Part shown: piece after piece, positions 17,242 through 48,474 of the stretch
Position numbering within the stretch: the first letter of the stretch is position 1
How the letters are laid out: the number at the start of each line of letters is the position of its first letter
NCBI GenBank assembly: GCA_963720375.1
Contig: CAVRFM010000023.1
Span: 18,179 to 82,178, forward strand
Origin: an uncultured Chloroflexia bacterium
Lineage (GTDB): Bacteria > Chloroflexota > Dehalococcoidia > UBA2247 > RBG-13-53-26
Length of the DNA stretch: 64,000 bases
Reading direction: 5' to 3'
Notes under the pieces: model-generated
What the model was told of the DNA's origin: nothing
The model's database searches: none
What the model saw: only the letters and a program-made list of their open reading frames with translations
Translations under genes and position numbers: made by a program

Positions 17242-18606
17242 GTGAGTGTTGCGGAAAGTGCCGAGATAAAGATACCAGCCGGAAGGGAGTATCAGTTGCC
17301 GACCGACCCTGATCATCTGTGGGATGGGTTGAAGGATATCGGGTTGGGGATAAGATGGGTAGCTGAGGTAAAAAAGGCCGACATGCAAATTGAGCTGTCG
17401 GGGCCAAAGTGGGAATACAAGAGTTACACCATCCTTGAGATCGTAGAAGAACCGGGGAAGGTCAGGAACGGCATAGTTAACCTTGTTGGCCCGGATATAC
17501 ATGAAGTCCCGCCTGGGAGTTCCTTCCCTATGGCATGGGACATCAAGGTCTATGGCCATGGGATAACCCAGAGACACCGGGAATACATTGAAAGACAAAT
17601 GGCCATGTCATTACATGGTATAGAGGGCTATATGGCCTTTGGCTCATTCCAGGCCCCCTGGATGCGCTTCAGCAAGGCTATCGTTGGACGACTCACCTTT
17701 GCGAAGCTGTGCCAGGTCATACATGCCTACGTCAAGACCGTTGTCCCGCAGGTGGAGGCGATGGAGTTCCGCTGGATCATTGCATCGGAGGAAGTTGGTG
17801 GCCTCAAGCTGATTGAGCCACTTTACAGGTTGGGTATCCAGAGGCTGAAGGCGCAGGAGCTGTCGGTCTCTCTTGAAGATGCTGATGTGGATATCTTCTA
17901 TGGCTGCACTATCTGCAAGTCGCTGGCCCCCAACCACGTGTGCGTCATTACACCGAGCCAGATACCGTACTGTGGCATCCTCTCCTATAATGGAGCGCAG
18001 GTGACGGTGGAGCTTGATCCGGAGGGCTATATCTTCCGGATGAGCAAAGGCGAGTGCAAAAATGAACAAATGGGCAGCTACACCGGTGTGGATGAGGCAG
18101 TCTACGAGAGGTCTAACCATCAGATAAAGCATGTGAATGTCTTCAGTGCCATAAAGTATCCTACTACCAACTGCGGTTGCTTCGAAGGGGCGGCATTCTA
18201 CATTCCTGAAGTAGATGGCCTTGGCCTGGCTATAAGACGGTACATTGGGGTAACTCCGTTGGGCGTAAAGTTCTCGCGTCTGGCCGGCATGATTTCGGGC
18301 GGCTCTCAGAATCATGGAAATAAGGGCGTATCCATGCGGTCCATGCAAAGCAAGACCTTTCTCAAGGGCGATGGAGGTTGGAGCAGGATAGTGTGGATGC
18401 CCGCCGATTTGAAGAAGGAAGTCGCGGAATACATTCCCGAAGAGATCTACGATAAGATTGCCACTGAGCAGGATACCGTTGATCCTATCGAGCTGAAAGA
18501 GTTTCTAAAGAAGAAGAAGCATCCGATAGTAGAGAAGTATTGGAAGAATGGCGAACCACAGCCACTGAAAGTACCACTCCCCGGAGCGAAGTGGCCCGAC
18601 GAATAG
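17242..18606 (+). CDS. cdhC: acetyl-CoA synthase catalytic subunit, archaeal short type (CdhC/AcsB-like), copy 1
   Basis: 454 aa. Contains the A-cluster Cys-Gly-Cys motif (NCGCFE) plus upstream Cys residues (CTICKS...CGIL). Confidence 0.75.
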   Translation: MSVAESAEIKIPAGREYQLPTDPDHLWDGLKDIGLGIRWVAEVKKADMQIELSGPKWEYKSYTILEIVEEPGKVRNGIVNLVGPDIHEVPPGSSFPMAWDIKVYGHGITQRHREYIERQMAMSLHGIEGYMAFGSFQAPWMRFSKAIVGRLTFAKLCQVIHAYVKTVVPQVEAMEFRWIIASEEVGGLKLIEPLYRLGIQRLKAQELSVSLEDADVDIFYGCTICKSLAPNHVCVITPSQIPYCGILSYNGAQVTVELDPEGYIFRMSKGECKNEQMGSYTGVDEAVYERSNHQIKHVNVFSAIKYPTTNCGCFEGAAFYIPEVDGLGLAIRRYIGVTPLGVKFSRLAGMISGGSQNHGNKGVSMRSMQSKTFLKGDGGWSRIVWMPADLKKEVAEYIPEEIYDKIATEQDTVDPIELKEFLKKKKHPIVEKYWKNGEPQPLKVPLPGAKWPDE

Positions 18607-18622: not shown

Positions 18623-18838
18623 ATGGGAGAGAAGACCTGCGGTGTTTGTCAGAAGAAGGTAGCGGAGTTTGCATGTAGTGTGTGTGGCGTACCTCTGTGT
18701 GCTGAATGTGTTCGAGAGGTAGCCATAGAAAACCCTGGTCAGAGAGTTCTGGGTGTATTAACCAGCCCTTTGAAGTCCGGAATGAAGAAGCAAAAAGTAT
18801 GTGAGAAATGCATGAAGGAAGTGGACTTTGTTGAGTAG
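18623..18838 (+). CDS. Cys4x2 zinc-ribbon small protein, copy 1
   Basis: 71 aa with four CxxC pairs (CGVCQ, CSVCG, CAEC, CEKC). A paralogue sits at the same position in module 2. Confidence 0.6.
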   Translation: MGEKTCGVCQKKVAEFACSVCGVPLCAECVREVAIENPGQRVLGVLTSPLKSGMKKQKVCEKCMKEVDFVE

Positions 18839-19120: not shown

Positions 19121-21622
19121 GTGAAAGATAAGAGAATTGCTCATGTCGGATCTCTGGAGGTCGATATCAGCACAGTCGTGCGTGACCCGCGCGGTCATGA
19201 AGACGAAATTGTCGAGATAATGGAGAACGACTTTGTTGAGGGCCGCCATAGTAATTTTGGAGGATGGATAACTCTACTGCCCGATGCGGCAGACATAGCA
19301 GAACTGGATTATGCTCTGTTGAGCAGGTATCCGCCGTTATACACTCAGCCCAATGGTGTTTGCACTGACTGTGGCCTGGGCCCCTGCAACTTGAAAGAGG
19401 GTCAGGGAAAGTGCGGACTGGATATGGAGGCTTTCCAGGGCAGGTTAAGCTTACGGAAAGCATGCCGGGGTTGTATGACTCAACTAGTGGCCAGCCGACA
19501 ATTGCTGAACTACGCTCTCAAACGCTGGCCGGAGGATACGCCTGTCAGCATGGGTGAGATTCTCGGTATCTCAGATCATGCTCCTGCCATAAGCGTGTTA
19601 TCCGGGATACACGTAAAGACTTTAAGAGATCTTAACAGAGCGCTTTCTTATGGAGAGGAACAACTGGCCAAGCTCTTTCAGGCGAGTTATTCGGGCACTG
19701 GAACGGCGGTGAATTTTGAAAGCATGGTGCTGCATGCCGGGTCTGTTTTGCTCCTCACCATGGGTGTGGCTGAGCTGCTGAAGATCTCCTGCTATGGCTT
19801 TATCAGTGCTGCCAATCAGCCACTGGAGGCGATCGAGCAGTTTCCTCCTGCCACTTTAAATGGTGGGTGGGCATCCATGGAGAGTGGGAAGCCTGTCATA
19901 GCCTTTGTTGGGGATGACTTCCTGCCGGCATGGTGTGCCATCGATCATATGAAGCAGAACGGTCTGACAGAAAAGATTGAGATATGCGGCATGGGTTCAG
20001 CCGGTGATGACATAGTGAGATTCTACGATAGGTGCCGGATCGTGGCCCCGATGGTGAGGGCGCCAAAGGCGATCAGAAATGGCCTGTTTGATGTGGTTGT
20101 GGTCAGTCCAGGATGTATTCCCCTGGACCTTCTATCCCAGGCGGAGCGTGTCGATAGCAAGGTTATATGGGTTGGTCACAATGGAATCAGCAATCTAGCG
20201 GATAGCACGGATGAGCCATCAGACAAGATAGTAGAGGCCTTACTTCATGGAGGAAAGGCAGTCTGGATCAGGGACGTAGAGAAGGCTGGTGAGGTGGCGG
20301 TGAAGTTGGCACAGAAGGTCAAGAGAAGTGGTAATTACATTATCTCTGACGATGAAGCAATAAAACAGGCAAAGGGCCATAAGCAGGATTGTGATATTTG
20401 TTCCAGTGTCTGTCCCAATAATCTGCCTGTATCCAGGGCGGTCAGAGAATTGGGTAAGGGTGACTGGAAGGGTTTCTTCGAGGTGGAGAAAGGATGCAAT
20501 TTCTGCGGCAAATGTGATGAGGCCTGCCCCAGCAAGGTTCAACTGCGCGATATCATTGTGGCTGCCGAGAGAAAGCAGGCCGGCACCGATAAATTCATAA
20601 TGAGGCCAGGCAGGGGGCCGATATCAATAACTGAGCTGCTGCAATCTGCTTTCGCAGTAGGCTGGGGCAGCATACCAGCCATGGTGACCATCTTTGGTTG
20701 CGGCGATGCCAAGAAGGAGGAGATCGCCTGGATAGCCAGTGAGTTGCTTAACGGCGGTTGCATGGTCTTTGTGGCAGGGTGTGCCGGAGCTGAAGTAGCT
20801 CGATCTTTCAGCCAGGCGAAGAAGAAGTACCTCTTTCAAGAATATGCTGGCACTTGTGCCTCGAGAAATATTGTGAATTGCGGCAGTTGCTCTGCTATTT
20901 GCCATGCTGTCCCGATGTATCTCATGCTGCGGCCTTCTGGTGGCATTCCTCTGTATGGCAATCTACCACCGCTGGGAGATTCCATCAGTCTTGGTGGTGC
21001 TCAGTCTGTGATCATGTGGGGGGCATTGCCGGACAGAATGTATGCGGTGGCAGCTGCCTGGGCTCGGCTTGGATCAACGGTCATTGTAGGGCCTGCCTCA
21101 TCCTCAGGATGGAACCGCTACCTGGTTGGTGATAGATATGATCGCAGCAAGTGGTGGGTCTATCATGGTGAGACGGGTAAGAGGCGTGAGGTTGAACCGG
21201 TAAAGGAACACTGCATTGTGCCCGTGGAAACTAAAGAGGAAGCGTTGACTATGCTGGCAAGGTCTGTGTTGAATGTAAAGGACTACAGAGAGAGCCGAGC
21301 TACTCACCTGGAGGTGATGATTGACTACTTTGAGCGCTTCTATCAGCAGTTGCCGGAGGATTGGCCTCTCTTTGTGAGGTCAGATTTCGAACTGCCGCCG
21401 AGATACAGACGACGCATGGTCAATCTCCTGGGATCCGAGTATGGATGGGAGACTGAAGGTGTGAAGGTTAAGAGAGCAAAGAATAGAGATGGCAAGCTAA
21501 TGACCATGTCTGAGTTCGCAGCTAACTATGGGATGGAGCAAGGGATATATAGCACAAGGCTTCGCACCCAGTTACCCCTACGTCTCAGGGGTGTGGCTGA
21601 TGAAGGTAAGTCTAAAAAGTAA
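19121..21622 (+). CDS. cdhA: CO dehydrogenase catalytic subunit, archaeal CdhA-like, copy 1
   Basis: 833 aa. N-terminal CTDCGLGPC...GKCG Cys cluster. Two internal ferredoxin motifs (CDICSSVCPNN; CNFCGKCDEACPS) are typical of archaeal CdhA. Adjacent to cdhB and cdhC. Confidence 0.65.
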   Translation: MKDKRIAHVGSLEVDISTVVRDPRGHEDEIVEIMENDFVEGRHSNFGGWITLLPDAADIAELDYALLSRYPPLYTQPNGVCTDCGLGPCNLKEGQGKCGLDMEAFQGRLSLRKACRGCMTQLVASRQLLNYALKRWPEDTPVSMGEILGISDHAPAISVLSGIHVKTLRDLNRALSYGEEQLAKLFQASYSGTGTAVNFESMVLHAGSVLLLTMGVAELLKISCYGFISAANQPLEAIEQFPPATLNGGWASMESGKPVIAFVGDDFLPAWCAIDHMKQNGLTEKIEICGMGSAGDDIVRFYDRCRIVAPMVRAPKAIRNGLFDVVVVSPGCIPLDLLSQAERVDSKVIWVGHNGISNLADSTDEPSDKIVEALLHGGKAVWIRDVEKAGEVAVKLAQKVKRSGNYIISDDEAIKQAKGHKQDCDICSSVCPNNLPVSRAVRELGKGDWKGFFEVEKGCNFCGKCDEACPSKVQLRDIIVAAERKQAGTDKFIMRPGRGPISITELLQSAFAVGWGSIPAMVTIFGCGDAKKEEIAWIASELLNGGCMVFVAGCAGAEVARSFSQAKKKYLFQEYAGTCASRNIVNCGSCSAICHAVPMYLMLRPSGGIPLYGNLPPLGDSISLGGAQSVIMWGALPDRMYAVAAAWARLGSTVIVGPASSSGWNRYLVGDRYDRSKWWVYHGETGKRREVEPVKEHCIVPVETKEEALTMLARSVLNVKDYRESRATHLEVMIDYFERFYQQLPEDWPLFVRSDFELPPRYRRRMVNLLGSEYGWETEGVKVKRAKNRDGKLMTMSEFAANYGMEQGIYSTRLRTQLPLRLRGVADEGKSKK

Positions 21623-21700: not shown

Positions 21701-23101
21701 GTGTTGTGTAGGTTCCACGAAAGGGGTATACAAATGGCTATTCCAGAGGAAGAAGCAGTATCCAAACTCCCACCGGGAAGGATATTTCAGTTGCCGACAG
21801 ACCTTGATCACCTTTGGGACGGGCTGGATGACGTCGGGCTCGGTCTAAGGTGGTTGAGTGAGGTGAAGAAAGCTGACATGCACATTGAGTTGGGTGGGCC
21901 TAAGTGGGACTATAAGATGTTCTCCATCTTCTACATTGAGGAAGATCCGGAAAAGGTCAGGGATGGAGAAGTCAAGTTGATCGGCCCGGACGTTCCAGAA
22001 GTGGCAGCAGGCACCTCATTACCCGGCGGGTTTACGATAAGGATCTATGGTAAACAATTGACTCAAGCACATCAGGGCTATGTATCCAGACAGATAGGAA
22101 CTGCGCTGCAAGGCATAGAAGGATTCATGCTCTTTGGAACGCCGGATGCTCTGTGGATAAGGATAAGCAAAGACGTGGCGAACAGGTTGACCTTTGCCAA
22201 GATATCTCAGTTTTGCTATGCCACCGCGAGAACGCTGATCCCTCAGGTAGATGCCATAGCATTCTTCTGGGCAGTAGGAGCTCCTGAAGTCGGTGGTGTT
22301 GAGATGATAAACCCGCTGGTTACCTGGGCTAAGGAGAAGTTTAAGATCATAAGTGCCAAGGAGCTCTACGATGATGAAGACGTAGATACCTTCTATGGTT
22401 GCACGATCTGCAAATCCCTGGCGCCAAATCATGCCTGTGTCCTTACGCCAAGCGCGCTGCCTTACTGCGGCATCATCGGCTATGATTCGGCTAAGGTAAC
22501 AGCAGAAATAGACCCGGAAGGGTATGTTTTTACTATTCCTAAAGGTGAATGCTTGGATCAGGAGAAAGGGCATTACACGGGAGTCGACCAGGCCATATGG
22601 GAGAAATGCAATCATCTGGTAAAGCGCGTGAACATCTACAGCAGCATAAACTATCCGACTACCAATTGTGGGTGCTTTGAGGCAGCATCTTTCTACATAC
22701 CGGATGTTGATGGTATCGGTCTGGCTATGCGGCGCTATACCAAGATGACACCGCTCGGTGTCAAGTTTTCCACTTTGGCAGGTATGATCTCCGGTGGGGC
22801 TCAGAATCATGGGTTCAAGGGATTGTCGATTGCCGGTATGGCGAGTAAGAACTTCCTGCGAGGAGATGGCGGTTGGAACCGGGTAGTCTGGATGCCTGCG
22901 GATTTGAAGAGGGATATCGCGGATGTGATTCCAGAGGAGGTCTATGACAAGATTGTCACTGAGGAAGAGACTATTGATCCTCTGGAGCTCAAGGAGTTGC
23001 TCCGCAAGAAAGGACACCCAATAGTCAAGCTGTTCTGGAAGAATGGCGAACCCCAGCCATTAAAGTTGCCGCTTCCCGGTGAAGACTGGCCGGATAACTA
23101 A
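21701..23101 (+). CDS. cdhC: acetyl-CoA synthase catalytic subunit (CdhC-like), copy 2
   Basis: 466 aa, about 60% identical to copy 1. NCGCFE A-cluster motif retained. Confidence 0.75.
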   Translation: MLCRFHERGIQMAIPEEEAVSKLPPGRIFQLPTDLDHLWDGLDDVGLGLRWLSEVKKADMHIELGGPKWDYKMFSIFYIEEDPEKVRDGEVKLIGPDVPEVAAGTSLPGGFTIRIYGKQLTQAHQGYVSRQIGTALQGIEGFMLFGTPDALWIRISKDVANRLTFAKISQFCYATARTLIPQVDAIAFFWAVGAPEVGGVEMINPLVTWAKEKFKIISAKELYDDEDVDTFYGCTICKSLAPNHACVLTPSALPYCGIIGYDSAKVTAEIDPEGYVFTIPKGECLDQEKGHYTGVDQAIWEKCNHLVKRVNIYSSINYPTTNCGCFEAASFYIPDVDGIGLAMRRYTKMTPLGVKFSTLAGMISGGAQNHGFKGLSIAGMASKNFLRGDGGWNRVVWMPADLKRDIADVIPEEVYDKIVTEEETIDPLELKELLRKKGHPIVKLFWKNGEPQPLKLPLPGEDWPDN

Positions 23102-23342
23102 ATTTAGATTTGGGGGAATGTTTATGGAAAAGATGTGTGATCTATGCCAAAAAAGGGTAGCGCCGTGGACATGCCATGAATGTGGTATCGCTTTGTGTGA
23201 CGAATGTTCCCGTGAGGTTCGTATTGATTCTACCAGACCTGGCCAGAGAATGATGGGCCGGATCACCAGCCCCATGAAGTCAGGGGTGCAGAAACTAAAG
23301 GTCTGCGAGAAGTGCTTCAAGGAAAAGGAGTTTCTCGGATAA
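23079..23342 (+). CDS. Cys4x2 zinc-ribbon small protein, copy 2
   Basis: 87 aa. CDLCQ, CHECG, CDEC, CEKC. Overlaps the cdhC-2 stop. Confidence 0.55.
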   Translation: MKTGRITKFRFGGMFMEKMCDLCQKRVAPWTCHECGIALCDECSREVRIDSTRPGQRMMGRITSPMKSGVQKLKVCEKCFKEKEFLG

Positions 23343-23365: not shown

Positions 23366-25871
23366 TTGCTGAGGAGAGAAGTAATGGAGAAAAAGAGGAT
23401 TGCCCATGTAGGGCCTCACAAAGTTGACATAAGTGAAGTGGTGCGTGATCCCCGTGGTATTGAGGATATAGTCACGGAGATACTGGAGAAAGACTTTGTT
23501 GAGAGCCGCTATTCACAATTTGGGGCGTGGTTGAATATCTTGCCCGACGCGGCGGATATCGGTGATTGGGATCGCACTCTGCTGGAAAGATATGTGCCGC
23601 TATATACTCAGCCTCAAGGCACGTGCATTGATTGTGAGTTGGGTCCTTGCAGATCTCAAGGTAAGCAAAGGTAAATGCGGATTAGAGATGGATTCGTTTC
23701 AAGGCAGGCTGAGTTTGCGCAAGGCCTGCCGTGGCTGTATGGGCCAGATGGTAGCTACTCGTCATTTGTTGAACTATGCATTGAAGTTATGGGATGAAAG
23801 CAAGGCTGTCAGCATGGGTGAGCTCTTGACCATGTCGGATGCCTGCCCTCCTGTAGGCACTTTGAGCGGCATCTATGTGAAAACCCTCAAGGACTTGAAC
23901 AGGGTGCTCTCATATGGAGAGGCGCAGTTGGCTAAGCTGATGTCTGCGAGCTATTCAGGCACCGGAGCAGTGGCGGATTTTGAGAGCATGGTGATGCATG
24001 CTGGTTCTGTTCTGCTTCTGGCTATGGGAGTGTCTGAGATGATTAAGGTCGCTTGCTTCGGCTTTACGTCAGCCGCTAACCATAAGATTGATGAACTGGA
24101 GAATTTCCCGCCGGCCAACGTGGTTGGAGGATGGCCGTCCATAAAGGAAGGTAAGCCGGTAATTGCCTTTGTCGGCGATGATTTTCTGCCGGCATGGTGT
24201 GCCATAGAGTATCTCAAGCAGAATGAATTGTTGGACAAAGTCGAGATATGCGGTATTGGCCCTGCAGGTGATGACGTGGTGCGCTTCTATGACAAGTGCC
24301 GCATAATCGCTCCGATGGTGAAGGCGGGCAAAGCTATCAGAAATGGTGTCTTCGATGTGGTTGTAGCTGCGAACGGATGTATTCCTTTGGATATGCTATC
24401 TGAAGCGGCAAGGGTAAAGAGCAAGTTCATATGGGTAGGAGCGCAGGGAGTTGGCAATCTGGTCGATAAGACTGATGAACCTCTGGACAAGATAGTGAGT
24501 GCTCTGGTTGATGGTGAAGAGGCAGCTTGGATTAGAGATGTTGAGAAGGCTGGCCAGGTAGCAGTCAAGGTAGTCCAGCAAGTGAAGAGAACACGGCAAT
24601 TTATTCTAAGTGATGAGTTGGCAGTTGCGCAGGCTAAGAAGTGTAAGGATGATTGTGATCTTTGCTCTAGTGCTTGCCCCAATAGCTTGCCATTATCAAA
24701 GGCGGTCAGACTGTTACGCGGCGGTAACTGGGATGGTTTCTCAGAGGTGGAGAGAGGGTGCTATTTCTGTGGAAAGTGTGAAGAGGCTTGCTCGGCTGGG
24801 GTGAGGCTGCGTGACATAATAGTAGCGACTGAAAGGAAACAAGCGAAGAAGGACAAATTCATTATGAGAGCGGGAAGAGGTCCTCTCCCCCTCACTGAGA
24901 TACTGCAGTCGGCTTTTTCCATGGTCTGGGGTAATGCTCCCGGTATCGTGGTGATAGCGGGTTGTGGTGATGCTTCCCGCGATGATATCGGATGGCTGGC
25001 TCAAGAATTAACCAGACGAAACTGCATTGTCTTTGTGGCTGGATGCGCCGGTGCTGAGATTGCCCGCAACTACAGCGAAAGGAAGGGTAAGTATATTTTT
25101 GAGCAGTACCTGGCTTCTATTGAGCCACGGTCTCTCATCAACTGCGGTGGCTGCACCGCAATTTCCCTGGCGAACAACATGTATATGTACTCGCGTGCTG
25201 CCGGAGGCATTCCTCTCTATGGGGGCATACCAGAGGTAGGCGAAGGGTCACTTTATACTACCTTCACGTTGCTTGTGTGGGGTGCTCTGCCTGACAGGAT
25301 GTATGCAGCAGCAGCAGCATATGCCCGTCTTGGGATAAGGGTTGTAGTGGGTCCGGCTTCGGGTTGGACTTGGGGTCGCTATTTGCCTGGCAATAGGTAT
25401 GATCGGAGCAAATGGTGGGTCTATCATGGAGACAATGGTAGTAAGAGGGAAACCGAACCTGTTCCGGAGCATTTTATTATCCCCGTGGAAACCAAAGAGG
25501 AAGCACTGACCATGATGCCCCACACTTTCTTCAGTACATCTGAGATGAGGGAGGGTCGGGCTGCTCGTCTTGACCTGCTTATTGAGTTGTATCGGCTGTT
25601 CTATGGCCAACTTCCCGATGATTGGGATTTGTTGGTGAGGTCCCATTTGGATATCCCGACTAGGCACAGGATCAGGTTGGTTAAGCTACTTCGGGATGAA
25701 TATGGTTGGGAAGGCGATGGATTGAAGATTACCAAGGCCAGGAATCGTGATGGGAAACTGTTAACCCTGTCGGAATTCAATACCAGCTACGGTATGGAGC
25801 TGGGAAGATACCACTGCAGACTGAAGAGACTATTGCCAAAGAGTGTGAGAGATAGAGAAAAGGGCAGTTAG
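23366..25871 (+). CDS. cdhA: CdhA-like CO dehydrogenase subunit, copy 2, with apparent +1 frameshift at ~23651
   Basis: ORFs 23366..23674 and 23562..25871 together reconstitute a CdhA-1 homologue. The frames join directly after CELGPC (TGC-A-GATCTC). Confidence 0.6.
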
Positions 25872-26365
25872 TCCTCCTCATCCTTAGTTTCCTCCGATTT
25901 TACGAGGTCAAGTGCGCTGAAGGGGCATTTTTCAGCGCATAGGTTACAGATATCAAGACCCGGTACTGCGCGTTTACAGCTTGACCATTCTACTACGTTA
26001 AGATTGCCGTCTATCACTTTAATGACTGGTGGTACGGGGGCGCGCTGAGAGAGCCTGCCGCCGGAAGTGATAGTGGTAAGTGCTCTATCGCAGACGGCGA
26101 CGCAATCACCGCAACCGGTGCATCTCGACCTATCAATGACGTGATCTGTACCTTTGATGCGCTCTCCTTCCCCCAACATCTCCTTCAGCATATCGTATGA
26201 ATCACGGAATTCTTCCTTGAGAAGGAGGGGGCAGTCAGCCGGCTTCTTATTCCTGCTTATGAGGTCGAAGGCAAAGGCATAACACGTGGGAGAACCACAG
26301 AGCTTACAATTGGTGCGTGGCAATAGCCTGTACATCTGGAGCGGTTGAAGATCTTTCTTAGGCAA
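25868..26365 (-). CDS. RnfB-like polyferredoxin
   Basis: The N-terminal LPRTNCKLCGSPTCYAFAF motif is the Fe-S domain found in RnfB and the AcsC N-terminus. Two CxxCxxCxxxC(P) ferredoxin motifs follow. Confidence 0.6.
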   Translation of the reverse strand: MPKKDLQPLQMYRLLPRTNCKLCGSPTCYAFAFDLISRNKKPADCPLLLKEEFRDSYDMLKEMLGEGERIKGTDHVIDRSRCTGCGDCVAVCDRALTTITSGGRLSQRAPVPPVIKVIDGNLNVVEWSSCKRAVPGLDICNLCAEKCPFSALDLVKSEETKDEED

Positions 26366-26762
26366 CTTTCCTCCTGACCAGGAGGTCTGAGGGCGTGGTA
26401 ATATTCTTTTCGGTCGGTATGGCTGTCACATCTATCATCTTAAGGTTTGGCAGTTGCGATACCGATGGATCGTAGCTTCCCAGGTAGTTAGAATACAGGC
26501 TGGACGGCATATGGCCTATGCCTTCTTCGATAGCGGTTTCTGATTTTGCTGCCACCACCACGGAGCCTGATTTGCCTCTGATCTCGATAGGGGCGCCACT
26601 CTTAAGCCCCAGCTTTTTCAGATCAGCCGCGGATAGGTGCACCACGGCAGACCTGGTCTGATATTCATCGCCCAATCCATCTCTCTGCCTGGCAATCGCC
26701 TGGTGAATATCGTCATAGGTCACGATGGTCAGACTAATACCCTGGTTAGATGAATCCATCAA
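26358..26762 (-). CDS. fwdD: formylmethanofuran dehydrogenase subunit D-like (molybdopterin-binding domain)
   Basis: 134 aa. Overlaps fwdB by 4 nt. Size and context match the FwdD family. Confidence 0.5.
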   Translation of the reverse strand: MMDSSNQGISLTIVTYDDIHQAIARQRDGLGDEYQTRSAVVHLSAADLKKLGLKSGAPIEIRGKSGSVVVAAKSETAIEEGIGHMPSSLYSNYLGSYDPSVSQLPNLKMIDVTAIPTEKNITTPSDLLVRRKVA

Positions 26763-27982
26763 ATGCTCCCTGCCAATTGTTTCAGGACTTCCTCCTCGGT
26801 AGGCTGATCTACTTTTTTTGGCCCGGCTAATGCTACCTCAGCCCCATCCATTCTTATCATTGAGCCACCGTATTCTACGCCGGGCAGTGCTGTTGGTATG
26901 ACCACATCAGCGGAGATCGTGGTAGGTGTACGGAAGTGATCCAAACAGATGACGTTTATGCCCTGCAGATTCTTCATTATGGACTGAGGCAGAGCTGAAA
27001 ACGGATCTGCCCCCATTATTAGCAGGCATTCGGGGACACGGTTTCTTACTTGTTCCAATAAGGAGAACTCACTTCCGTGAGAAATGCTGCCGGCAAAGCT
27101 TATGCTGTTAACATATCCCGTCTGTTTGTAGAGCGATTGATGGAATCCTCTCATGTTGGCTTCTGCGATCATGGGAATCACAGCAACCCTGGTCGACTGA
27201 CTGAACGTATGTACCATCTTGCTGAATGAGGTGAGATCATTGTCAAGAGAGTAGATCAGGCCGAGCCCGCAGAAGATGACGCAAAAGCGAGATTTTGCCA
27301 CCATTTCTCTGAATTTTCTGGCTTCCTCACGTGCGTTTTGTCCCTCATCGAGGATGGTATTGATGAATCCCTTATCCTGTCCAGGCTTGATTCTGAAGGG
27401 CGGCTTACACATTGAGCTTAACTCAGTCTGTCTAACCTCGACGCAGCTTAGTGTTACCTTGGGGTACCATCCGGCGGGATTATAATCAGCATAGGCATAG
27501 TAAGTGTACTTCGAAAGGTGCCTCGGGTGGGTGTGGGGAGGATTGGCACCCCAGTAGATTAGCAGATCTGCATTATCTTTTACTTCGGAGAGAGAGCATG
27601 TTGGCAGATCCTCGGTAAGGATTTTCTGCATCATGACACCATATGAAAAGGATGAGGCGTCATCGATAGTTCCGCCAAGCCTTTTTGCCAGATCGATGGC
27701 AACCGCCTGTGATTCTAAGGTCGAATTATCAAGACCAAAGACGAGGAGATTCTTTGCCTTGGAAAGGAGGTGCACTGCCTCTTGAATGGCTTCTTCCAAA
27801 GAGCGCCTTTGGCCTCTAATGAGGGCCTCTGCCCGGCGCTGCGGATCGAAGCTGGAACGGAGATAGGTCGCCCCCTTGGCACAGGCGTTCTCGATACGGC
27901 CCAGATTGGCACCGTCGATCTCAACCCGGATATCGTCGCATAGGCAACCGCATCCGGTGCAGACCAAGTTCTGAAAGCTCAA
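26759..27982 (-). CDS. fwdB: formylmethanofuran dehydrogenase subunit B-like (bis-MGD oxidoreductase fold)
   Basis: N-terminal VCTGCGCLCDD Fe-S motif and downstream blocks (DLLIYWGANPPHTHPRH) align with archaeal FwdB as recalled from memory. Confidence 0.65.
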   Translation of the reverse strand: MSFQNLVCTGCGCLCDDIRVEIDGANLGRIENACAKGATYLRSSFDPQRRAEALIRGQRRSLEEAIQEAVHLLSKAKNLLVFGLDNSTLESQAVAIDLAKRLGGTIDDASSFSYGVMMQKILTEDLPTCSLSEVKDNADLLIYWGANPPHTHPRHLSKYTYYAYADYNPAGWYPKVTLSCVEVRQTELSSMCKPPFRIKPGQDKGFINTILDEGQNAREEARKFREMVAKSRFCVIFCGLGLIYSLDNDLTSFSKMVHTFSQSTRVAVIPMIAEANMRGFHQSLYKQTGYVNSISFAGSISHGSEFSLLEQVRNRVPECLLIMGADPFSALPQSIMKNLQGINVICLDHFRTPTTISADVVIPTALPGVEYGGSMIRMDGAEVALAGPKKVDQPTEEEVLKQLAGSI

Positions 27983-28100: not shown

Positions 28101-30311
28101 TCATGAATACGAAGTGCGAGCTGCTGCTGCTTCTTCGACCAAGGTGGCAGGCAGTTCCTCAGGTCCGACAAGGTAGATTCTCCCCTTCCCTACTTTGGCA
28201 ATCCTTCTCATCAACTCCGGATCGGCGGATCGCTGGTTGATACAGACGCAGGAAATTGTAATACCTCGGCGAGCTACCCTGGCAGCTTGCCTGAGGGCGT
28301 ACTTCTGTGGGGATGGATGGGGTGCTGTCGCATCGCCATCGGATATGAGGATAATATGCTGCTTTGCTCTTCCCTTGGGGTGATGTTCCAGCAATTCACA
28401 GGCCTTCAGCAAACCATAGCCGATGTTGGTAAAAGCGTTCTCATGCAGCTCGAGTTCAATTACACGGCGAGTCACTCTGTGAGGGCTGGCGGTTAGATCG
28501 ACCACAATATCAGCCAGGTTGGAGAATGAGACCACTGCCACCCTGTCTTTATATGCAGTCGCGGCCAGTGAGAGAGCCATCGCGCTTTGCTTAGCGAACC
28601 AAAATTTCTCGAGTTGCAACATAGTGCCGGAGACATCGATCACCAAGACAATATCCATTCTGGTGCGGATGTCTTTGATATTGACGATGATATCTTCTCT
28701 GGTGATGTATTGTCTTCGGTGGCGGATTGCCTCTCTCATGGTATTTCTGAATGATATGTCGCGGTATTTGTCCCCGAAGCGATAGTGGCGCATTCCCACC
28801 ACTCTGCCCTCGCCCAAGCTCAACTTCTTACCCGAGCTGTGCTTCCCATATCCATATAGATAAGCTCCCTCGTCCAACCGTGGCGTCAACTTCTCCAATA
28901 GCATGTTAATGCCACGCTGGCTGAGCATCCAGCCGCTGCTGGTACGCTCCAGGATATCTTCCTTCTCCAGAAATTCAAGGGTTTTGGCCAGCGCTTGCTG
29001 CTCTATAAGCTTGGCTATCATTTCCTTTTCTTTTCTGTATTCTTCAACTTCCTTAAGCAACTCATCATCGAGATTATCGGCTTTGTATCGTTCCGGGTAG
29101 AGCTCTGGCAAGCGACAGGCAATCTCTCTGTATAGCTGGGCCAGTTTGGAGTCAGGGAATCGTTTGATTCTCCTTAGCAGTAGATCGAAGGAGCCATATT
29201 TCAGAGGTTTCCTGAACTTATCTTCCCGGACAATCTCCTCGATCAGGGCCAGAACATCATCTTTGGTCAGGGTAGCCAGCTGTTCCCTGGCTTCATGTTT
29301 GCCGGTTACCTTCTCGACAACTTCCTCAACAATTCGCTCTCTCTTCCCGGGCAGATCGACCTCCGGGGCCAGTTTAAGGCGGTGGGGCAGCGAGACTGCT
29401 GCTGCGACAGAAAGTCTTCTATCGGCGTCCTCGTATTCCTCCAATTCAGGGAAGTGGGCTAGAAGCTCAGCATTTCTAATCATGCCGCGCGTTCCTACTC
29501 CCCTTTCTACCTCGCTGTGTCTTCTCGTCTCGTTAACTATGCGAATTGCCTGCTCAAGAACTGGTTCGGCTAAGGTTTCTGTATCACGGCCGATGTGGGC
29601 AAGAACAATCCTCTTTTGCTTATCAAGATCGTCAACGTAGTCAAGGTGGATAACATCAAAGTTGTCCAGCAAGTCCAGTGGTAATGACTTTAATGCTCCC
29701 TCTCCGCCAGTGGCTACTACTAGGGTATCCAGTTTGATCTTTTGTTCCAACACACCAATGGTTATTGTTCCATCTTGGAGGGCATACATAACTACATTGA
29801 GCACTCGCTCAGGGATTCTATCGATGAAATCAATCAGCAATATGCCTCGATTAGCCCGTAACAGTTTTCCGGGCAGGAAAGCACGAGGAGAGTAAATACC
29901 TTCTTTAAAGGCTATTTCTGGATCAAGGTCTCCGATCAGATCTTCAACCGTTAACCCTCCGCTTCCTTGTATCTTCACCAATCTCCTGGCTGCAGGGAGG
30001 ATGGTGCTGTGAAGTATTTCACCTCGCTTTTTCCTGTCTATACACCAGGGGCAGGGATCATCTTTAGGAAAACAATGTAGGGGACAGCCTTCTACTACCT
30101 CAATATCATCCAGAATAACAGGTAGGCTGTTGGCTAAACTTGTTTTACCACTTCCGGGGGGGCCAAGAATAAGCAGGTGGTGTGCACTGCAGAGACTGCT
30201 TAGTAAGGCCAGCTTCTTCGCATCTTCTATTTGAAGATCATCAAAGACTGACCGGCTAAACTTGTCAGTGCCTATTCTGTCTAGGGTGGTAAGGATTTCT
30301 TCCAGAAGCAA
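28101..30311 (-). CDS. ChlD/BchD-like protein: AAA+ N-domain with Cys4 insertion + C-terminal VWA domain
   Basis: GPPGSGKTS Walker A. CPLHCFPKDDPCPWC insertion. C-terminal VLVIDVSGTM...ILISDGDATAP is a VWA domain with a MIDAS motif. 736 aa. Confidence 0.7.
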   Translation of the reverse strand: MLLEEILTTLDRIGTDKFSRSVFDDLQIEDAKKLALLSSLCSAHHLLILGPPGSGKTSLANSLPVILDDIEVVEGCPLHCFPKDDPCPWCIDRKKRGEILHSTILPAARRLVKIQGSGGLTVEDLIGDLDPEIAFKEGIYSPRAFLPGKLLRANRGILLIDFIDRIPERVLNVVMYALQDGTITIGVLEQKIKLDTLVVATGGEGALKSLPLDLLDNFDVIHLDYVDDLDKQKRIVLAHIGRDTETLAEPVLEQAIRIVNETRRHSEVERGVGTRGMIRNAELLAHFPELEEYEDADRRLSVAAAVSLPHRLKLAPEVDLPGKRERIVEEVVEKVTGKHEAREQLATLTKDDVLALIEEIVREDKFRKPLKYGSFDLLLRRIKRFPDSKLAQLYREIACRLPELYPERYKADNLDDELLKEVEEYRKEKEMIAKLIEQQALAKTLEFLEKEDILERTSSGWMLSQRGINMLLEKLTPRLDEGAYLYGYGKHSSGKKLSLGEGRVVGMRHYRFGDKYRDISFRNTMREAIRHRRQYITREDIIVNIKDIRTRMDIVLVIDVSGTMLQLEKFWFAKQSAMALSLAATAYKDRVAVVSFSNLADIVVDLTASPHRVTRRVIELELHENAFTNIGYGLLKACELLEHHPKGRAKQHIILISDGDATAPHPSPQKYALRQAARVARRGITISCVCINQRSADPELMRRIAKVGKGRIYLVGPEELPATLVEEAAAARTSYS

Positions 30312-30329
30312 TTTGTATATCGTCCGACT

Positions 30330-31091
30330 TCAACTGTAGCTCAGTATCTTCTTGCAGATTTCATCTATCGCAATGGATGCTGGAGAGTCTTTTGGAATCT
30401 CGCTCACAGGTTTGCCTTCGCCATCAAACTGTGCCACTAGCGGTTCGAAGGGGATATAGGCTGCTATCTCGAGACCGTTTTCCTTGGCCAACTCGTCTAC
30501 TCGAGACCTGTTTTCCTCCGTCACTCTGTTGGCCACTATCAGGATGGCGCCAAACTCGATATTGAGCTCTCTTGATATCTCCACAATTCTCTTAGCAGTT
30601 TGAATGGCATTTTTTGTAGGATCGGTAACCACCAGCATGATGTCAACATCCCGGGTAGTGCGCCGGCTAAGGTGCTCCAGCCCTGCGTGACAGTCGATTA
30701 TAGTGAAATCATAACCCCTTGCTCTAGTGTCTATTACCTGTCGGATGACGTGGTTGACGGCGCAGTAGCATCCCTCACCCTCCGAACGCCCCATTACGAG
30801 TATGTCGAATTGAGGGAACTCCTCAATAGCTTCGTGGAGGGCCAACTCCAGATGTTCTTGTTTAGAATTTGTCACCTTGCTACGAGCTGGTGCGTTTATA
30901 ATTGCCTCCCGGCTCTCTCCTACATTCTTGGTCACTGTCACACCAAGGGCTTGGGGGAGGTTGGAATCCGGGTCGGCATCAATTGCCAGTACACTACCGT
31001 GCTCCGATAACTTCTTTACCAGCATGCCTGACACAAAGGTCTTCCCTACTCCGCCCTTTCCGGAGACCGCAATAGCAAGTCCTCTGCTCAT
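30330..31091 (-). CDS. cooC: CooC-type Ni-insertion ATPase (MinD/ParA family)
   Basis: Deviant Walker A AVSGKGGVGKT. GCYCAVN CxC Ni-binding motif characteristic of CooC/AcsF. Confidence 0.75.
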   Translation of the reverse strand: MSRGLAIAVSGKGGVGKTFVSGMLVKKLSEHGSVLAIDADPDSNLPQALGVTVTKNVGESREAIINAPARSKVTNSKQEHLELALHEAIEEFPQFDILVMGRSEGEGCYCAVNHVIRQVIDTRARGYDFTIIDCHAGLEHLSRRTTRDVDIMLVVTDPTKNAIQTAKRIVEISRELNIEFGAILIVANRVTEENRSRVDELAKENGLEIAAYIPFEPLVAQFDGEGKPVSEIPKDSPASIAIDEICKKILSYS

Positions 31092-32128
31092 GAGTACTTC
31101 CCTTCCAGAACGCTATTTACCAGTTCATTAATCAAATTCATGGGGTCATCGTAGAACTTGGACTCAGGCGATGGCTTGATTCTGCTACCAAGAGAGGAAG
31201 CGGCCATATTTCGTATATCATCCATATTTGCTTCAGATCGGTTTTCCAGCTTTGCCACAGCCTGTACCTTCTCATAAAGCGAAAGTGTAGCTCTTACACT
31301 GGCGGCTTGATCCATCTCCTTCGACCAAGGCTCTTCACGTGTAGCTCGTACCAGGGCAACCACGGCATCAAGTACTTTATCCGGCACTCTTACGTTATCA
31401 ATCCTGAGGCCATATCGGACTACTATCTCCTTCTCTTTTTGCAGAGATTCAGGATAGCCCATCTTGACTACATCAAATCTATCGAGAAGGACATCGGAAA
31501 GCTCCTCGACCCCAGCCCGTTCTCTCGGATTCATGGTAGCTATCATCACAAAATCAGCCGGGTAGTCTACGTCGTAAGGCCCTATCGTCGCGATGCCCTC
31601 TTCAAGGACCTCTAATAGAGCATTTTGAAGTTTCTCTGTAACCCTGTTAAGTTCATCGAAGAAAACGATCCCTCGATTGCCTTTGAGCAATTTCCCCGGC
31701 AAGAATGCTCGGTAGTCCTGGGGACCATACTTGAAAGCCTGTGTTGGATCGATATCTCCCAAGAGGTCCTCAGCCGTAAGGTCAGGAGAACCCTGCAACC
31801 TGACGAACCTTTGCTCACCAGGAATTATAGTGGACTCCAGTTTCTCACCAGTGGAAGCCTTTGCCTTGCACTGTGGGCAGACAGGCTGTTCCGGGTGGCA
31901 ATGGTAAGGACAACCCTTCACCACCTTTATAGGAGGCAAAGCTGCCGCTATGTGCTTGGCGAGAGTAGTCTTGCCAACTCCAGGCGGTCCCTCAATCAGC
32001 ACGTGATGGCCAGCCAGCAATGACGCAAGGATCCTTTTCTTGGCATCATCCTGGCCCACAATGACTGAAAGCATGTCATTCCCATCGGTCGCAGATTTCA
32101 GGATCGTTTCTCTTAGTCCCTCAATCAT
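31088..32128 (-). CDS. ChlI/BchI-like AAA+ ATPase with Cys4 zinc-ribbon insertion
   Basis: VIVGQDDAKKRILASLL + GPPGVGKTT + LPPIKVV matches the magnesium-chelatase I-subunit N-terminal pattern. CPYHCHPEQPVCPQC is inserted after it. 4-nt overlap with cooC. Confidence 0.7.
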   Translation of the reverse strand: MIEGLRETILKSATDGNDMLSVIVGQDDAKKRILASLLAGHHVLIEGPPGVGKTTLAKHIAAALPPIKVVKGCPYHCHPEQPVCPQCKAKASTGEKLESTIIPGEQRFVRLQGSPDLTAEDLLGDIDPTQAFKYGPQDYRAFLPGKLLKGNRGIVFFDELNRVTEKLQNALLEVLEEGIATIGPYDVDYPADFVMIATMNPRERAGVEELSDVLLDRFDVVKMGYPESLQKEKEIVVRYGLRIDNVRVPDKVLDAVVALVRATREEPWSKEMDQAASVRATLSLYEKVQAVAKLENRSEANMDDIRNMAASSLGSRIKPSPESKFYDDPMNLINELVNSVLEGKYS

Positions 32129-32192: not shown

Positions 32193-33131
32193 TTGCAGGG
32201 GCGGTTGCTGGGTATCAGGAGGCTTCTCTGGGTCAGTGAAGGAACTGAATATTGGTGTTTTGACGCTGCAGATAGTGATTGTTATAATGGCCTCGTGGCA
32301 CGAACAAATGGGGTTCCCGCTAAGATGCTGACGGTAGGTGAAGTCAACAGTACTTTTGCTGAAAAGGGAGTGGATATTAAGCTGCCGTTGCCCACTCACT
32401 TTTTGGTAAAGAATCTGCAGGTTCTTGAGAGAAGGAAAGTCCCGGGTGGGGTGGGGCTACTTTTGAGCGTAGAGTTCATAAATGATAATGGGGAGGAAGT
32501 TACCGATCTGTTTCACTGTGAAGGAGGGGTAAAGGTAGAGGGTAGAAAGAAGACTGAAACAGCAGAGATCCAGCAGCCACCCCTGACAGACCTGCTGCCC
32601 CTGCGCTCGAAAGAGGAATTTGAGAGCGATGACGAGGTGAAGTCTTATTTGAAAGAAGCTATCAGTCACCTGCTGCAGGATAAGGGGTACCGGCTTGGTG
32701 AGCGCGGCGATGTTGATTTGTATTTTGAGCGGCAGGAGCAGGGGTTCTTTATTAGTCTGGCAGTACGGTGTGACGAGTCACTCCTTGAAAAGGCGAAGAG
32801 CTTAGTAGAACTAAGGCAGAGGTATGGTGTTGATAATGAGTATGGCCTTATAGTCCCAGCCTTTCAGGATTCTCTGGGGGTTCCGCTTCTAAGTCAGGAG
32901 CGCTGGATATTGAGAAACCAGGAGTTCCTGACAATAAATCGGATCGGGGTCTATGCTGTTGATAATTGGAATCCAAATCTGCTCTATGCTTTTACTATTC
33001 ACCCTTCCCCAAGAGATCTCAAGAAATACTTCATGACTACGGGACCTAAGTGGTCTCTGGTTCGTAGCCGCTATGTTCTGGGCAGATCTAAGAAGAAGGC
33101 GGCTGGTCTTGAGTCTCCATCGGATGGTTAG
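32193..33131 (+). CDS. hypothetical protein (true start probably internal, about 32325)
   Basis: Long ORF, no recognisable motif. Confidence 0.35.
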   Translation: MQGRLLGIRRLLWVSEGTEYWCFDAADSDCYNGLVARTNGVPAKMLTVGEVNSTFAEKGVDIKLPLPTHFLVKNLQVLERRKVPGGVGLLLSVEFINDNGEEVTDLFHCEGGVKVEGRKKTETAEIQQPPLTDLLPLRSKEEFESDDEVKSYLKEAISHLLQDKGYRLGERGDVDLYFERQEQGFFISLAVRCDESLLEKAKSLVELRQRYGVDNEYGLIVPAFQDSLGVPLLSQERWILRNQEFLTINRIGVYAVDNWNPNLLYAFTIHPSPRDLKKYFMTTGPKWSLVRSRYVLGRSKKKAAGLESPSDG

Positions 33132-45247: not shown

Positions 45248-45251
45248 CTCG

Positions 45252-46206: not shown

Positions 46207-46250
46207 CTTTGGCCAGGAATGAATGCTCGGTCAACGGTCATCATTGTTAT

Positions 46251-46781: not shown

Positions 46782-46792
46782 CCGCCTATCCC

Positions 46793-48377: not shown

Positions 48378-48474
48378 AGATCACTCCTTCTTCGCGATTC
48401 GTGATTTGTGAAGCTTTGTGCAGTGGAGCAGGGCCTTATTTCACCTTCCTCGCGTCAGTCCTGCCAAATGCTCC

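Follow-up and report, generated by a model that had tools for sequence, protein, structure and literature searches.

A ChlI-like, CooC and ChlD-like gene set in variant Cdh-type clusters: a candidate maturation system for Ni enzymes

In canonical Cdh operons maturation relies on CooC/AcsF only, and it is not obvious why an AAA+/VWA pair should be needed in such a setting. What, then, could a chelatase-type motor and its partner do beside a CooC gene and a set of cdh-like genes? The question is raised by a window of 64,000 nt from an uncultured Chloroflexia bacterium (GCA_963720375.1, contig CAVRFM010000023.1, 18,179–82,178), which is the whole stretch of DNA analyzed here.

Gene arrangement in the window

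Three neighboring minus-strand genes occupy positions 28101–32128. They encode a ChlI-like AAA+ motor (31088..32128, 346 aa; HMM, PDB matches and motifs), a CooC-type Ni-insertion ATPase (30330..31091, 253 aa; PDB match and motifs) and a ChlD-like adaptor (28101..30311, 736 aa; HMM, alignment and structure model). An earlier note on this DNA had proposed the same set; the ORF calls reproduce its coordinates, and the HMM and PDB matches agree with its assignments. The ChlI-like gene has a strong ribosome-binding site (AGGAGG). Its stop codon is overlapped by the ATG of the CooC-like gene as ATGA, so the translational coupling suggested earlier holds for these two genes. The ChlD-like gene starts with TTG 18 nt past the CooC stop codon, a start that fits the N-termini of its orthologues.

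The same-strand run continues into a FwdB-like molybdo/tungstopterin subunit (26759..27982, minus strand), which retains the N-terminal 4-Cys motif and has Ser-Tyr where 5t5i_B carries the catalytic Cys118-His119, and a FwdD-like subunit (26358..26762, minus strand), whose start overlaps the fwdB-like stop codon. While the earlier note was right about this run and its convergence with the cdh genes, its "polyferredoxin" is a small Fe-S protein of the RnfB/CdhE-N-terminal type (25868..26365, minus strand, 165 aa), in which an N-terminal PF04060 domain (CdhE/RnfB type) precedes ferredoxin-type Cys motifs. On the other side, the conserved orf312/orf268 (32325..33131, plus strand, 268 aa) is divergent from the ChlI-like gene in the window, and in other phyla it lies inside the operon in the same direction. 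Its C-terminal domain adopts a fold like that of restriction endonucleases.

The cdh-like genes lie on the plus strand. Besides a CdhB(epsilon)-like gene (15030–15500) and the conserved orf189 (15510–16079), they form two paralogous sets. The first holds CdhC1 (17242–18606), with all A-cluster Cys kept, a 71 aa zinc-finger protein (18623–18838) and CdhA1 (19121–21622), in which the C-cluster His is replaced by Asp and Cys1 by Ser. The second holds CdhC2 (21701–23101), another zinc-finger protein (about 23124–23342) and CdhA2 (23366–25871), with His→Asp and Cys1→Pro, which is interrupted by a frameshift near 23560–23675. The corrinoid protein CdhD/E is absent from the cluster.

The AAA+ pair and its Cys4 loops

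The top HMM and PDB matches of the ChlI-like protein are a putative cobaltochelatase model, BchI/ChlI and MoxR, with ChlI and BchI as the nearest solved relatives in the PDB comparison. In Pfam, PF07726 AAA_3 (MoxR, 71 bits) scores above PF01078 Mg_chelatase (66.5 bits), whereas NCBIfam and PDB place chelatase proteins first. The motor is judged intact because Walker A (GPPGVGKT), Walker B (DE), the sensor-1 Asn, the Arg finger and the sensor-2 Arg are invariant in the homologue alignment; Walker B reads DE in 119 of 120 homologues.

The ChlD-like protein begins with an N-terminal Mg_chelatase/AAA+ domain and ends in a C-terminal VWA domain, the region between them being helical, and a structure model predicts both the AAA+ and the VWA fold. 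Its AAA+ domain is paralogous to the ChlI-like protein (38% identity). Walker A is kept, but the Walker B Glu, sensor-1 Asn and Arg finger are lost (DF, Gly and Asn, respectively), and a DE Walker B was never seen among the matched homologues. The VWA domain (28167..28769, minus strand) carries a complete MIDAS site (D559-x-S561-x-T563 ... T628 ... D658/D660), invariant in 47 sequences, and the protein also gives a partial Pfam match to VWA_CoxE.

Both AAA+ proteins contain a Cys4 knuckle. In the ChlI-like protein it spans residues 73–87 (31868..31912, minus strand; CPYHCHPEQPVCPQC; C73-x3-C77-x6-C84-x2-C87, consensus CPYHCxPxxPxCPxC), and in the ChlD-like protein residues 76–90 (30042..30086, minus strand; CPLHCFPKDDPCPWC; C76, C80, C87 and C90, consensus CPxxCxPxxxxCPWC). 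A check for loss in orthologues found the Cx3Cx6Cx2C motif essentially invariant among full-length homologues (118/119 ChlI-like, 117/117 ChlD-like), so that it is not a chance feature. The earlier note had described an unusual insertion shared by the two proteins. The sharing stands, but the stretch is no extra insertion: it matches the BchI/ChlI loop without gaps within the Cys4 itself, and the loop aligns with the ChlI-specific insertion i1. Nor is it unusual, since it is found in the wider family. Cys4 loops also occur in ATPases with scores of 363–663 bits against the putative cobaltochelatase model and of 320–436 bits against BchI/ChlI; as these lie far nearer to the canonical chelatase models, the loop is ruled out as a hallmark of the triad. 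In some close relatives the i1 Cys4 loop is wholly deleted. Being present in chelatase-like ATPases and lost in close relatives, it gives no argument for Ni-Fe-S chemistry. The knuckle would most likely be a structural Zn-type site that stiffens the partner-binding insert in both proteins, rather than a catalytic or Ni-transfer site.

An intact ChlI-type I subunit and a D subunit with a paralogous AAA+ domain and a MIDAS VWA domain are the features of class I chelatase subunits. The pair could accordingly be the motor of a true class I tetrapyrrole chelatase (for Co or Ni) whose CobN/ChlH is encoded elsewhere, its location here reflecting a requirement of the complex for a corrinoid or other tetrapyrrole. 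The identical I + D architecture, the top match to the "putative cobaltochelatase" model TIGR02442 and the Cys4 loop common to chelatase-like ATPases all speak for this, as does a fused archaeal relative located 4–6 kb from hemA and hemB. We nevertheless consider it highly improbable. Neither protein reaches the curated cut-offs of the class I chelatase families: the ChlI-like protein scores 119 against 779 (TIGR02442) and 100 against 467 (TIGR02030), and the ChlD-like protein 120 against 779 (TIGR02442) and 64 against 500 (TIGR02031). As the earlier note had stated, the window holds no CobN/ChlH-sized ORF, rpoB and rpoC being the only ORFs above 1000 aa, and rpoB/rpoC aside, the scan of the flanks of 30 loci (407 kb in total) returned no CobN-sized ORF either. 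Tetrapyrrole genes are absent from the bacterial clusters surveyed, and the missing CdhD/E likewise weighs against a corrinoid link. Fused archaeal ChlI-ChlD proteins are the closest relatives outside the cluster (54–59% identity); they sit among housekeeping genes, and their context gives no functional clue. The housekeeping setting of a second fused archaeal relative also counts against the chelatase reading.

A conserved cluster with variant Cdh-type proteins

A neighborhood survey took in 26 bacterial loci, which represent four or more phyla. Here the pair is part of a cdh-like/fwd-like cluster and not of tetrapyrrole operons, the alternative that the earlier note had set against its own proposal. 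The conserved cluster comprises CdhC, zinc finger, CdhA, CdhB, orf189, ChlI, CooC, ChlD, FwdB, FwdD, FeS and orf268, and was found in Chloroflexota, Thermodesulfobacteriota, Nitrospinota and one unclassified bacterium; in Desulfatiglans, the twelve cluster genes form a single co-directional operon. CooC directly follows ChlI in 24 of the 25 loci with downstream sequence. Where at least 5 kb of downstream sequence is available (n = 15), ChlD is present in 14 loci and cdhA-like plus cdhC-like genes in 13. A Spirochaetota locus with the ChlI-like gene alone, without CooC, counts against the maturation role proposed below.

The CooC-like ATPase has a deviant Walker A motif of the MinD/ParA type (GKGGVGKT). 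Its top PDB match is CooC1 (3kje), at only ~79 bits, and its CxC motif, Cys108-Tyr-Cys110 (30762..30770, minus strand), aligns with the CYC of CooC1, which we take to be the Ni-binding site; GCYC is invariant across 24 orthologues. The deviant Walker A, the CxC motif and the location inside a Ni-CODH/ACS operon, here of the A-4 variant type, are the features expected of CooC/AcsF.

The putative clients encoded in the cluster are, by their motifs, Ni-type proteins: CdhC retains every A-cluster Cys, and the pendant-Fe ligands His and Cys1 are replaced in all CdhA copies of these clusters. The substitutions fit structural groups A-4/A-6 of the clade A Ni-CODHs described by Inoue et al. (2019; PMC6344411), in which His→Asp/Asn and Cys1→Pro/Ser changes occur. 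Judged on these ligands, CdhA of the window falls into A-4, with the remaining four Cys and the Cys motifs of the E/F-cluster retained and ACS beta clustered with it; two of the surveyed loci (L013 and L015) are that study's own A-4 examples. The neighbors are therefore not the ordinary CODH/ACS and Fwd enzymes assumed in the earlier note, since CdhA is a ligand-substituted A-4 protein and FwdB lacks the catalytic Cys.

The altered pterin site offers a second candidate client. The AAA+/VWA pair might assist insertion or remodeling at the pterin site of the FwdB/FwdD-like molybdo-/tungstopterin module instead of serving the Ni proteins, much as CoxD/CoxE work on a Mo enzyme (bioRxiv 10.64898/2026.07.21.739949). 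One long contig (L080) carries FwdB-FwdD-Fer-ChlI-CooC with neither ChlD nor cdh genes within 10 kb, which may mean that the pterin subunit is the client, or just that the genes are split. ChlI-CooC-FwdB are adjoining in L016 and L017, FwdB directly follows ChlD in the window, and the FwdB active-site Cys position varies by lineage (Ser, Gly or Cys). Against this, CooC is a Ni-specific type of chaperone with an invariant CxC, and ChlD most often sits between CdhC and CdhA. Moreover, seven loci (L010, L011, L012, L014, L018, L022 and L028) gave no fwdB-like match, possibly for want of downstream sequence, and four of them contain ChlD and cdh genes. A pterin client thus seems improbable.

Genes for accessory and structural proteins alternate, as in the order ChlI-CooC-CdhC-ChlD-CdhA-CdhB. 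This seemingly stoichiometric gene order suits an integral subunit equally well as an assembly factor.

Proposed function and comparison with known systems

On balance, we lean toward a motor–adaptor–Ni-chaperone set that would mature or reactivate a variant Cdh-type Ni enzyme, a proposal built on synteny and motifs. The ChlI-like protein would assemble into an ATP-hydrolyzing AAA+ ring, like BchI/ChlI, on which the AAA+ module of the ChlD-like protein, probably binding ATP without hydrolyzing it, would dock. The MIDAS-bearing VWA domain could then serve as an adaptor gripping the client, most likely the A-4-type CdhA that lacks two pendant-Fe ligands and/or the A-cluster subunit CdhC. Ni would be delivered by CooC via its CxC site, and ATP-driven remodeling of the client would build or re-activate the unusual metal site. 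We infer ring formation, the adaptor role, client identity and metal insertion from gene context and motifs, which fit the dedicated cofactor-insertion system proposed earlier, with the insertion role itself putative. The scheme follows the motor–adaptor–effector model of how AAA+/VWA pairs act in inserting metals (CobSTN, NorQD, CoxDE and CbbQO; bioRxiv 10.64898/2026.07.21.739949).

The same source provides the CbbQO precedent for another possible, if unlikely, role of the ChlI/ChlD pair: an integral subunit that consumes ATP, or an activase dedicated to the mature enzyme, as CbbQO is for Rubisco, which would perform a conformational step, inhibitor release or repair of an oxidized cluster during turnover and not one-time assembly. 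It would suit the interleaving of accessory and structural genes in a single operon, and the inserts of ChlI, which move in an ATP-dependent manner, are proposed to pass force on to partners (PMC10653834). The coupling of a known maturation factor, CooC, to the ChlI-like gene, adjoining in 24/25 loci, points instead to metal delivery.

The literature search found no paper linking CooC with ChlI/ChlD. The earlier claim that the module is undescribed is borne out insofar as the search turned up no description of the triad, but the co-location already stands, uncommented, in a 2019 supplementary table (PMC6344411), the only place where the synteny was encountered. Its row reads COG1239-COG3640-COG1614-...-COG1152-COG1880-...-COG1029-COG1153-COG1456. 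The clusters of that study share the CdhA substitutions and a matching gene order with the present one; the chelatase-like genes are left undiscussed, the cluster is assigned to the Wood-Ljungdahl pathway by association, and the D-type subunit, MIDAS, Cys4 loop, FwdB active-site change and extra small proteins are not described.

With BchI/ChlI-BchD/ChlD and CobS-CobT, which supply its top HMM and PDB matches, the triad shares an active AAA+ protein with ChlI-type inserts, a partner of degenerate AAA+, linker and MIDAS VWA, and the paralogy of the AAA+ modules. It differs in having no ChlH/BchH/CobN effector or tetrapyrrole context nearby, in scoring four- to eight-fold under the family cut-offs, and in its coupling to CooC within a Ni-enzyme operon. 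Like CooC/AcsF of Ni-CODH and ACS, its third member combines a deviant Walker A and an invariant CxC with a cdh-type operon location. It stands apart in reaching only ~79 bits to CooC1 and in the translational coupling of its gene with that of a ChlI-like AAA+ protein, for which the literature search found no published description.

CoxD/CoxE (Mo-Cu CODH), NorQ/NorD (FeB of cNOR) and CbbQ/CbbO (Rubisco) resemble the triad in placing an AAA+ motor and a separate VWA/MIDAS protein in the client operon, in their proposed motor–adaptor–effector logic and in the partial Pfam matches to AAA_3 and VWA_CoxE. To our knowledge, CoxE, NorD and CbbO have no AAA+ domain, whereas the adaptor of the triad has its own, of the chelatase type, and its motor bears the ChlI-specific i1 insert with Cys4. 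The triad also includes a CooC Ni-chaperone and would serve an anaerobic Ni-Fe-S enzyme as its client.

The triad genes and their products

The reading frames assigned in the earlier note to a ChlI-like, a CooC-like and a ChlD-like protein (346, 253 and 736 aa; together the triad) are confirmed on the minus strand of the window. The ChlI-like gene (31088-32128) begins with ATG downstream of an AGGAGG ribosome-binding site, its stop codon overlaps the start codon of the CooC-like gene (30330-31091) as ATGA, and the ChlD-like gene (28101-30311) starts 18 nt past the CooC stop with a TTG that matches the conserved N-terminus in 47 orthologues. After a gap of 118 nt, the same strand continues with genes for a FwdB-like protein, an overlapping FwdD-like protein and, again overlapping, a 165-aa Fe-S protein; the last had been taken for a polyferredoxin and instead carries an N-terminal Fe-S domain of the CdhE/RnfB type. 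As originally described, this string is convergent with the plus-strand cdh cluster. A promoter and terminator scan of the 25.7-32.5 kb region gave counts not above shuffled expectation, apart from one strong promoter-like site upstream of orf268, which encodes a small conserved protein of the cluster. A second Ni enzyme, a [NiFe] hydrogenase with large and small subunits and an NrfD-like membrane protein, is encoded about 12 kb from the triad (44057-49671, minus strand).

Among solved structures, the ChlI-like protein comes closest to cyanobacterial ChlI and Rhodobacter BchI; in Pfam it matches AAA_3, AAA_5 and Mg_chelatase. Aligned orthologues show no variation at any catalytic AAA+ residue, and Walker B is Asp-Glu in 119 of 120 homologues. 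The N-terminal 340 residues of the ChlD-like protein are 38% identical to the ChlI-like protein; Walker A is kept, but the Glu of Walker B has become Phe, the Asn of sensor 1 Gly and the Arg finger Asn, and the Asp-Glu dipeptide of Walker B occurs in none of the matched ChlD-like homologues. A VWA domain forms the C-terminus, and its MIDAS site (D559-x-S-x-T ... T628 ... D658/D660) is invariant. In the AlphaFold model (mean pLDDT 76), an AAA+ domain, a helical middle region of low confidence and a VWA fold can be distinguished, and Foldseek matched the model to BchI, a MoxR protein and VWA domains. BchD/ChlD have the same layout, an inactive AAA+ module with an integrin-I-like adaptor. The best match of the CooC-like protein is Carboxydothermus CooC1 (3kje), whose CxC motif it shares; we take this motif to bind Ni. 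In 24 orthologues, neither GCYC nor the deviant Walker A varies.

Membership of the canonical chelatases was rejected, as the profile scores of the ChlI-like protein (119 bits for the 'putative cobaltochelatase' model TIGR02442, 100 bits for BchI-ChlI) lie under the cut-offs and neither CobN nor a tetrapyrrole context accompanies it. The window indeed encodes no CobN or ChlH: its only reading frames above 1000 aa are rpoB and rpoC, which, with ClpB and Dtd, identify the stretch as bacterial. The best protein matches of the window place it in a genome of the Dehalococcoidia/Chloroflexota. Likewise, apart from rpoB/rpoC, no CobN-sized reading frame was found in 407 kb of surveyed loci. A true tetrapyrrole chelatase with its CobN encoded elsewhere is highly improbable in view of the low scores, the gene context and the corrinoid subunits CdhD/E, which are absent from the cluster.

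Gene neighbourhoods and altered Cdh and Fwd proteins

A survey of one genome per GTDB species found orthologues (59-87% identity) in 28 loci, and 26 bacterial loci were examined by tblastn with the window proteins and by two look-ups with precomputed Pfam annotation. The hosts belong to the Chloroflexota, Thermodesulfobacteriota (Syntrophales, Desulfatiglans, Desulfobacterales), Nitrospinota and Spirochaetota (ChlI-like gene alone). CooC directly follows the ChlI-like gene in 24 of the 25 loci having any downstream sequence. Where at least 5 kb of downstream sequence is available (15 loci), a ChlD-like gene is present in 14 and CdhA-like and CdhC-like genes in 13. In one of the two loci without cdh genes (L002), the contig edge falls where the window's cdh genes would start; the other (L080) contains FwdB-FwdD-Fer-ChlI-CooC only, an arrangement which suggests the FwdB-like pterin subunit as the client of the triad, a reading that we consider quite improbable. 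The order is interleaved in Syntrophaceae and Nitrospinae (ChlI-CooC-CdhC-ChlD-CdhA-CdhB-orf189-FwdB), and a Dehalococcoidales MAG shows FwdB-FwdD-FeS-ChlI-CooC-CdhC-ChlD-CdhA-CdhB-orf189-orf312 (orf312 being orf268). In Desulfatiglans, twelve genes form one co-directional operon: CdhC-zinc finger-CdhA-CdhB-orf189-ChlI-CooC-ChlD-FwdB-FwdD-FeS-orf312.

The window contains two paralogous sets, CdhA1/CdhC1 and CdhA2/CdhC2, and all A-cluster ligands are kept in both CdhC copies. In both CdhA copies, and in every CdhA of the related clusters, the two pendant-Fe ligands of the C-cluster are replaced, the His of GHN by Asp or Asn and the following Cys by Pro, Ser, Asn or Ala; the remaining four Cys are retained, as are the Cys motifs of the E/F-cluster. 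The CdhA copies of these clusters are members of structural groups A-4/A-6 of clade A Ni-CODH, which Inoue et al. (2019; PMC6344411) described as bacterial and deeply branching, with incomplete active-site signatures; two of the surveyed loci (L013 and L015) are A-4 examples of that study. Its supplementary table lists, uncommented, the string COG1239-COG3640-COG1614-COG1614-COG1239-...-COG1152-COG1880-...-COG1029-COG1153-COG1456, the only trace of the triad synteny that the literature searches turned up, and its main text never mentions a chelatase. CdhA2 of the window is split by a frameshift (23366-23674 versus 23562-25871, plus strand), which places the N-terminal 102 aa, with CxDCxLGPC, out of frame with the remaining 769 aa. 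Its orthologues in two related loci (L005, L007) are intact; the split copy is a pseudogene or else reflects an error of assembly.

The FwdB-like protein (26759-27982, minus strand) scores slightly under the family cut-off, and at residues ~110-114 Ser-Tyr replaces the tungsten-ligating Cys118-His119 of M. wolfeii FwdB (5t5i). By lineage, the site is likewise Ser-Tyr in other Dehalococcoidia (Gly in L007) and Cys-Gln in Syntrophales, Nitrospinae and other Thermodesulfobacteriota/deltaproteobacterial loci. Judged by its sequence, the pterin subunit is probably not a canonical CO2 reductase. The altered CdhA and FwdB sites, combined with the lack of CdhD/E, would make the triad's enzyme a variant that does not necessarily interconvert CO and CO2; its changed active sites suggest that it catalyses something different from canonical CO oxidation.

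Several smaller genes accompany the cluster. Between each CdhC and CdhA lies a gene for a conserved zinc-finger protein, ~71 aa long and rich in Cys (18623-18838 and about 23124-23342, plus strand; 6140-6355 in L082); it is unannotated, shows weak zf-HIT/B-box matches and is a possible metal-handling or assembly factor. In most related clusters, orf189 (15510-16079, plus strand, in the window) comes after the CdhB-like gene, and in L016 and L017 it is present in duplicate. Neither orf189 nor orf268 has a Pfam or PDB sequence match; a CdhB paralogue was rejected for orf189, which has no CdhB similarity, and the model of orf268 resembles AF_2093 and restriction-endonuclease folds, from which no functional inference was drawn. 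An SDR gene sits between orf189 and CdhC1. Methylmalonyl-CoA mutase with MeaB lies near the cluster in the window (11404-14444 and 16128-17054), the mutase with an epimerase and a B12-binding domain in L080 (18312-20832), and acyl-CoA dehydrogenases in L019, L080 and L082 (2606-3787 in L082). The recurrence of such neighbours hints at a link to acyl-CoA metabolism.

The Cys4 motif and relatives outside the cluster

Both AAA+ proteins share a Cx3Cx6Cx2C motif (Cys4). The motif is present in 118 of 119 ChlI-like homologues (consensus CPYHCxPxxPxCPxC) and in 117 of 117 ChlD-like ones (consensus CPxxCxPxxxxCPWC). The earlier note had named a tetrapyrrole context with CobN/ChlH, or orthologues lacking Cys4, as findings that would speak against it; the context found is instead cdh- and fwd-like, and Cys4 is near-invariant. 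The idea of an extra insertion did not hold, since the stretch itself aligns gap-free with the BchI loop VEGCPVS-SPN and the ChlI loop VANDPFNSDPSDP. In the AlphaFold model, it lies between the post-P-loop helix and the next core strand, a position that corresponds to the ChlI-specific insertion i1. In the ATP state of ChlI, i1 is folded upward, and contacts with partner subunits have been proposed for it (PMC10653834). The compact four-Cys spacing would fit a structural zinc-type knuckle.

An exhaustive search of 1.84 billion representatives showed that GCPFNCxPxxPxxMCxxC is carried by proteins far closer to canonical chelatase ATPases (363-663 bits for TIGR02442, 320-436 bits for BchI-ChlI). 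Among near relatives, the Cys residues or the entire i1/Cys4 loop are missing in, for example, P0126, P0131, P0133, P0144, P0151 and P0161 (44-61% identity); where the loop is deleted, the Walker A helix leads straight into ...FIRIQGSPDL. Part of the clade can thus do without the knuckle. The idea that Cys4 is unique to the module was rejected on the gap-free BchI/ChlI alignment, the TIGR02442 high scorers and these losses. Given its presence in chelatase-like ATPases, Cys4 is an old trait of the ChlI/ChlD lineage that is not specific to Ni-Fe-S chemistry, and the argument initially built on it should be discounted. As proof of true chelatase motors, CobN was looked for beside two such Cys4-bearing ATPases (P0201, P0213) and was not found, so their chelatase-likeness is a matter of HMM scores only. 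Downstream of the fused P0213 (663 bits for TIGR02442; L088, 1596-6191) comes an ECF-type transporter that includes a CbiQ component, an arrangement suggestive of a Co/Ni link in that branch.

The closest relatives outside the cluster are archaeal single-chain ChlI-ChlD fusions (54-59% identity, 684-828 aa) in housekeeping surroundings, as for P0123. Fused proteins and a split Asgard pair are located at L025 9980-12466, L084 1539-3593 and L023 3762-7236. The genes hemA and hemB lie a few kb from the L025 fusion, in one lineage only (L024-L026 are syntenic), and in an Asgard (Borrarchaeum) MAG the split pair adjoins SufBD and Fae without cdh. The contexts of the fusions and the Asgard pair gave no functional lead; they indicate that the clade is not confined to a cdh context.

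Proposed role and known metal-centre motors

AAA+/VWA pairs operate in a motor-adaptor-effector scheme exemplified by BchID-H, CobST-N, NorQD-NorB, CoxDE and CbbQO (summarised in bioRxiv 10.64898/2026.07.21.739949). We lean slightly towards a reading, the best supported of those considered, in which the triad and its client would follow this scheme. The ChlI-like ring would hydrolyse ATP, the ChlD-like protein would join the ring through its dead AAA+ module and hold the client by its MIDAS site, and CooC would supply Ni, so that the unusual cluster of the client, A-4 CdhA and/or CdhC, may be assembled or re-activated. What was observed is the gene content, the integrity of the motifs and a conserved, interleaved synteny; from these we infer oligomerisation, adaptor role, client and metal-insertion function. 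It is unlikely, in our estimate, that ChlI/ChlD are instead an integral ATP-consuming subunit or an activase of the enzyme.

A bolder reading, which we regard as doubtful, would see a class-I-chelatase motor whose target has shifted from a tetrapyrrole-binding H/N subunit to a metal cluster held by protein. With CooC, this motor would assemble or drive a new Ni (plus Mo/W) enzyme composed of A-4 CdhA without pendant-Fe ligands, CdhC, CdhB, the FwdBD-like module, the Fe-S protein, the zinc-finger protein and two further proteins. Its chemistry would be other than Wood-Ljungdahl CO/CO2 interconversion, and the holoenzyme might contain the motor itself as a stoichiometric, ATP-consuming component.

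The known maturation factors of Ni-CODH/ACS are CooC, CooT, CooJ and AcsF, and we know of no AAA+/VWA motor-adaptor pair described for any anaerobic Ni-Fe-S enzyme. A literature search found no paper tying CooC to ChlI/ChlD, or an AAA+/VWA pair to Ni-CODH/ACS maturation. 'Mg-chelatase subunit' labels in genomes with the triad are misleading annotations. If the proposed role is confirmed, the module would provide a handle for the heterologous production of the whole A-4/A-6 Cdh-type branch, found widely among uncultured Dehalococcoidia, Syntrophales, Desulfatiglans and Nitrospinota. Neither the individual components nor the general principle is new; the novelty lies in combining a chelatase-type I/D motor with CooC inside a ligand-altered Cdh/Fwd operon. 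Confirmation would extend the motor-adaptor-effector principle from Mg/Co-chelatase, NorQD, CoxDE and CbbQO to Ni-Fe-S cluster enzymes.
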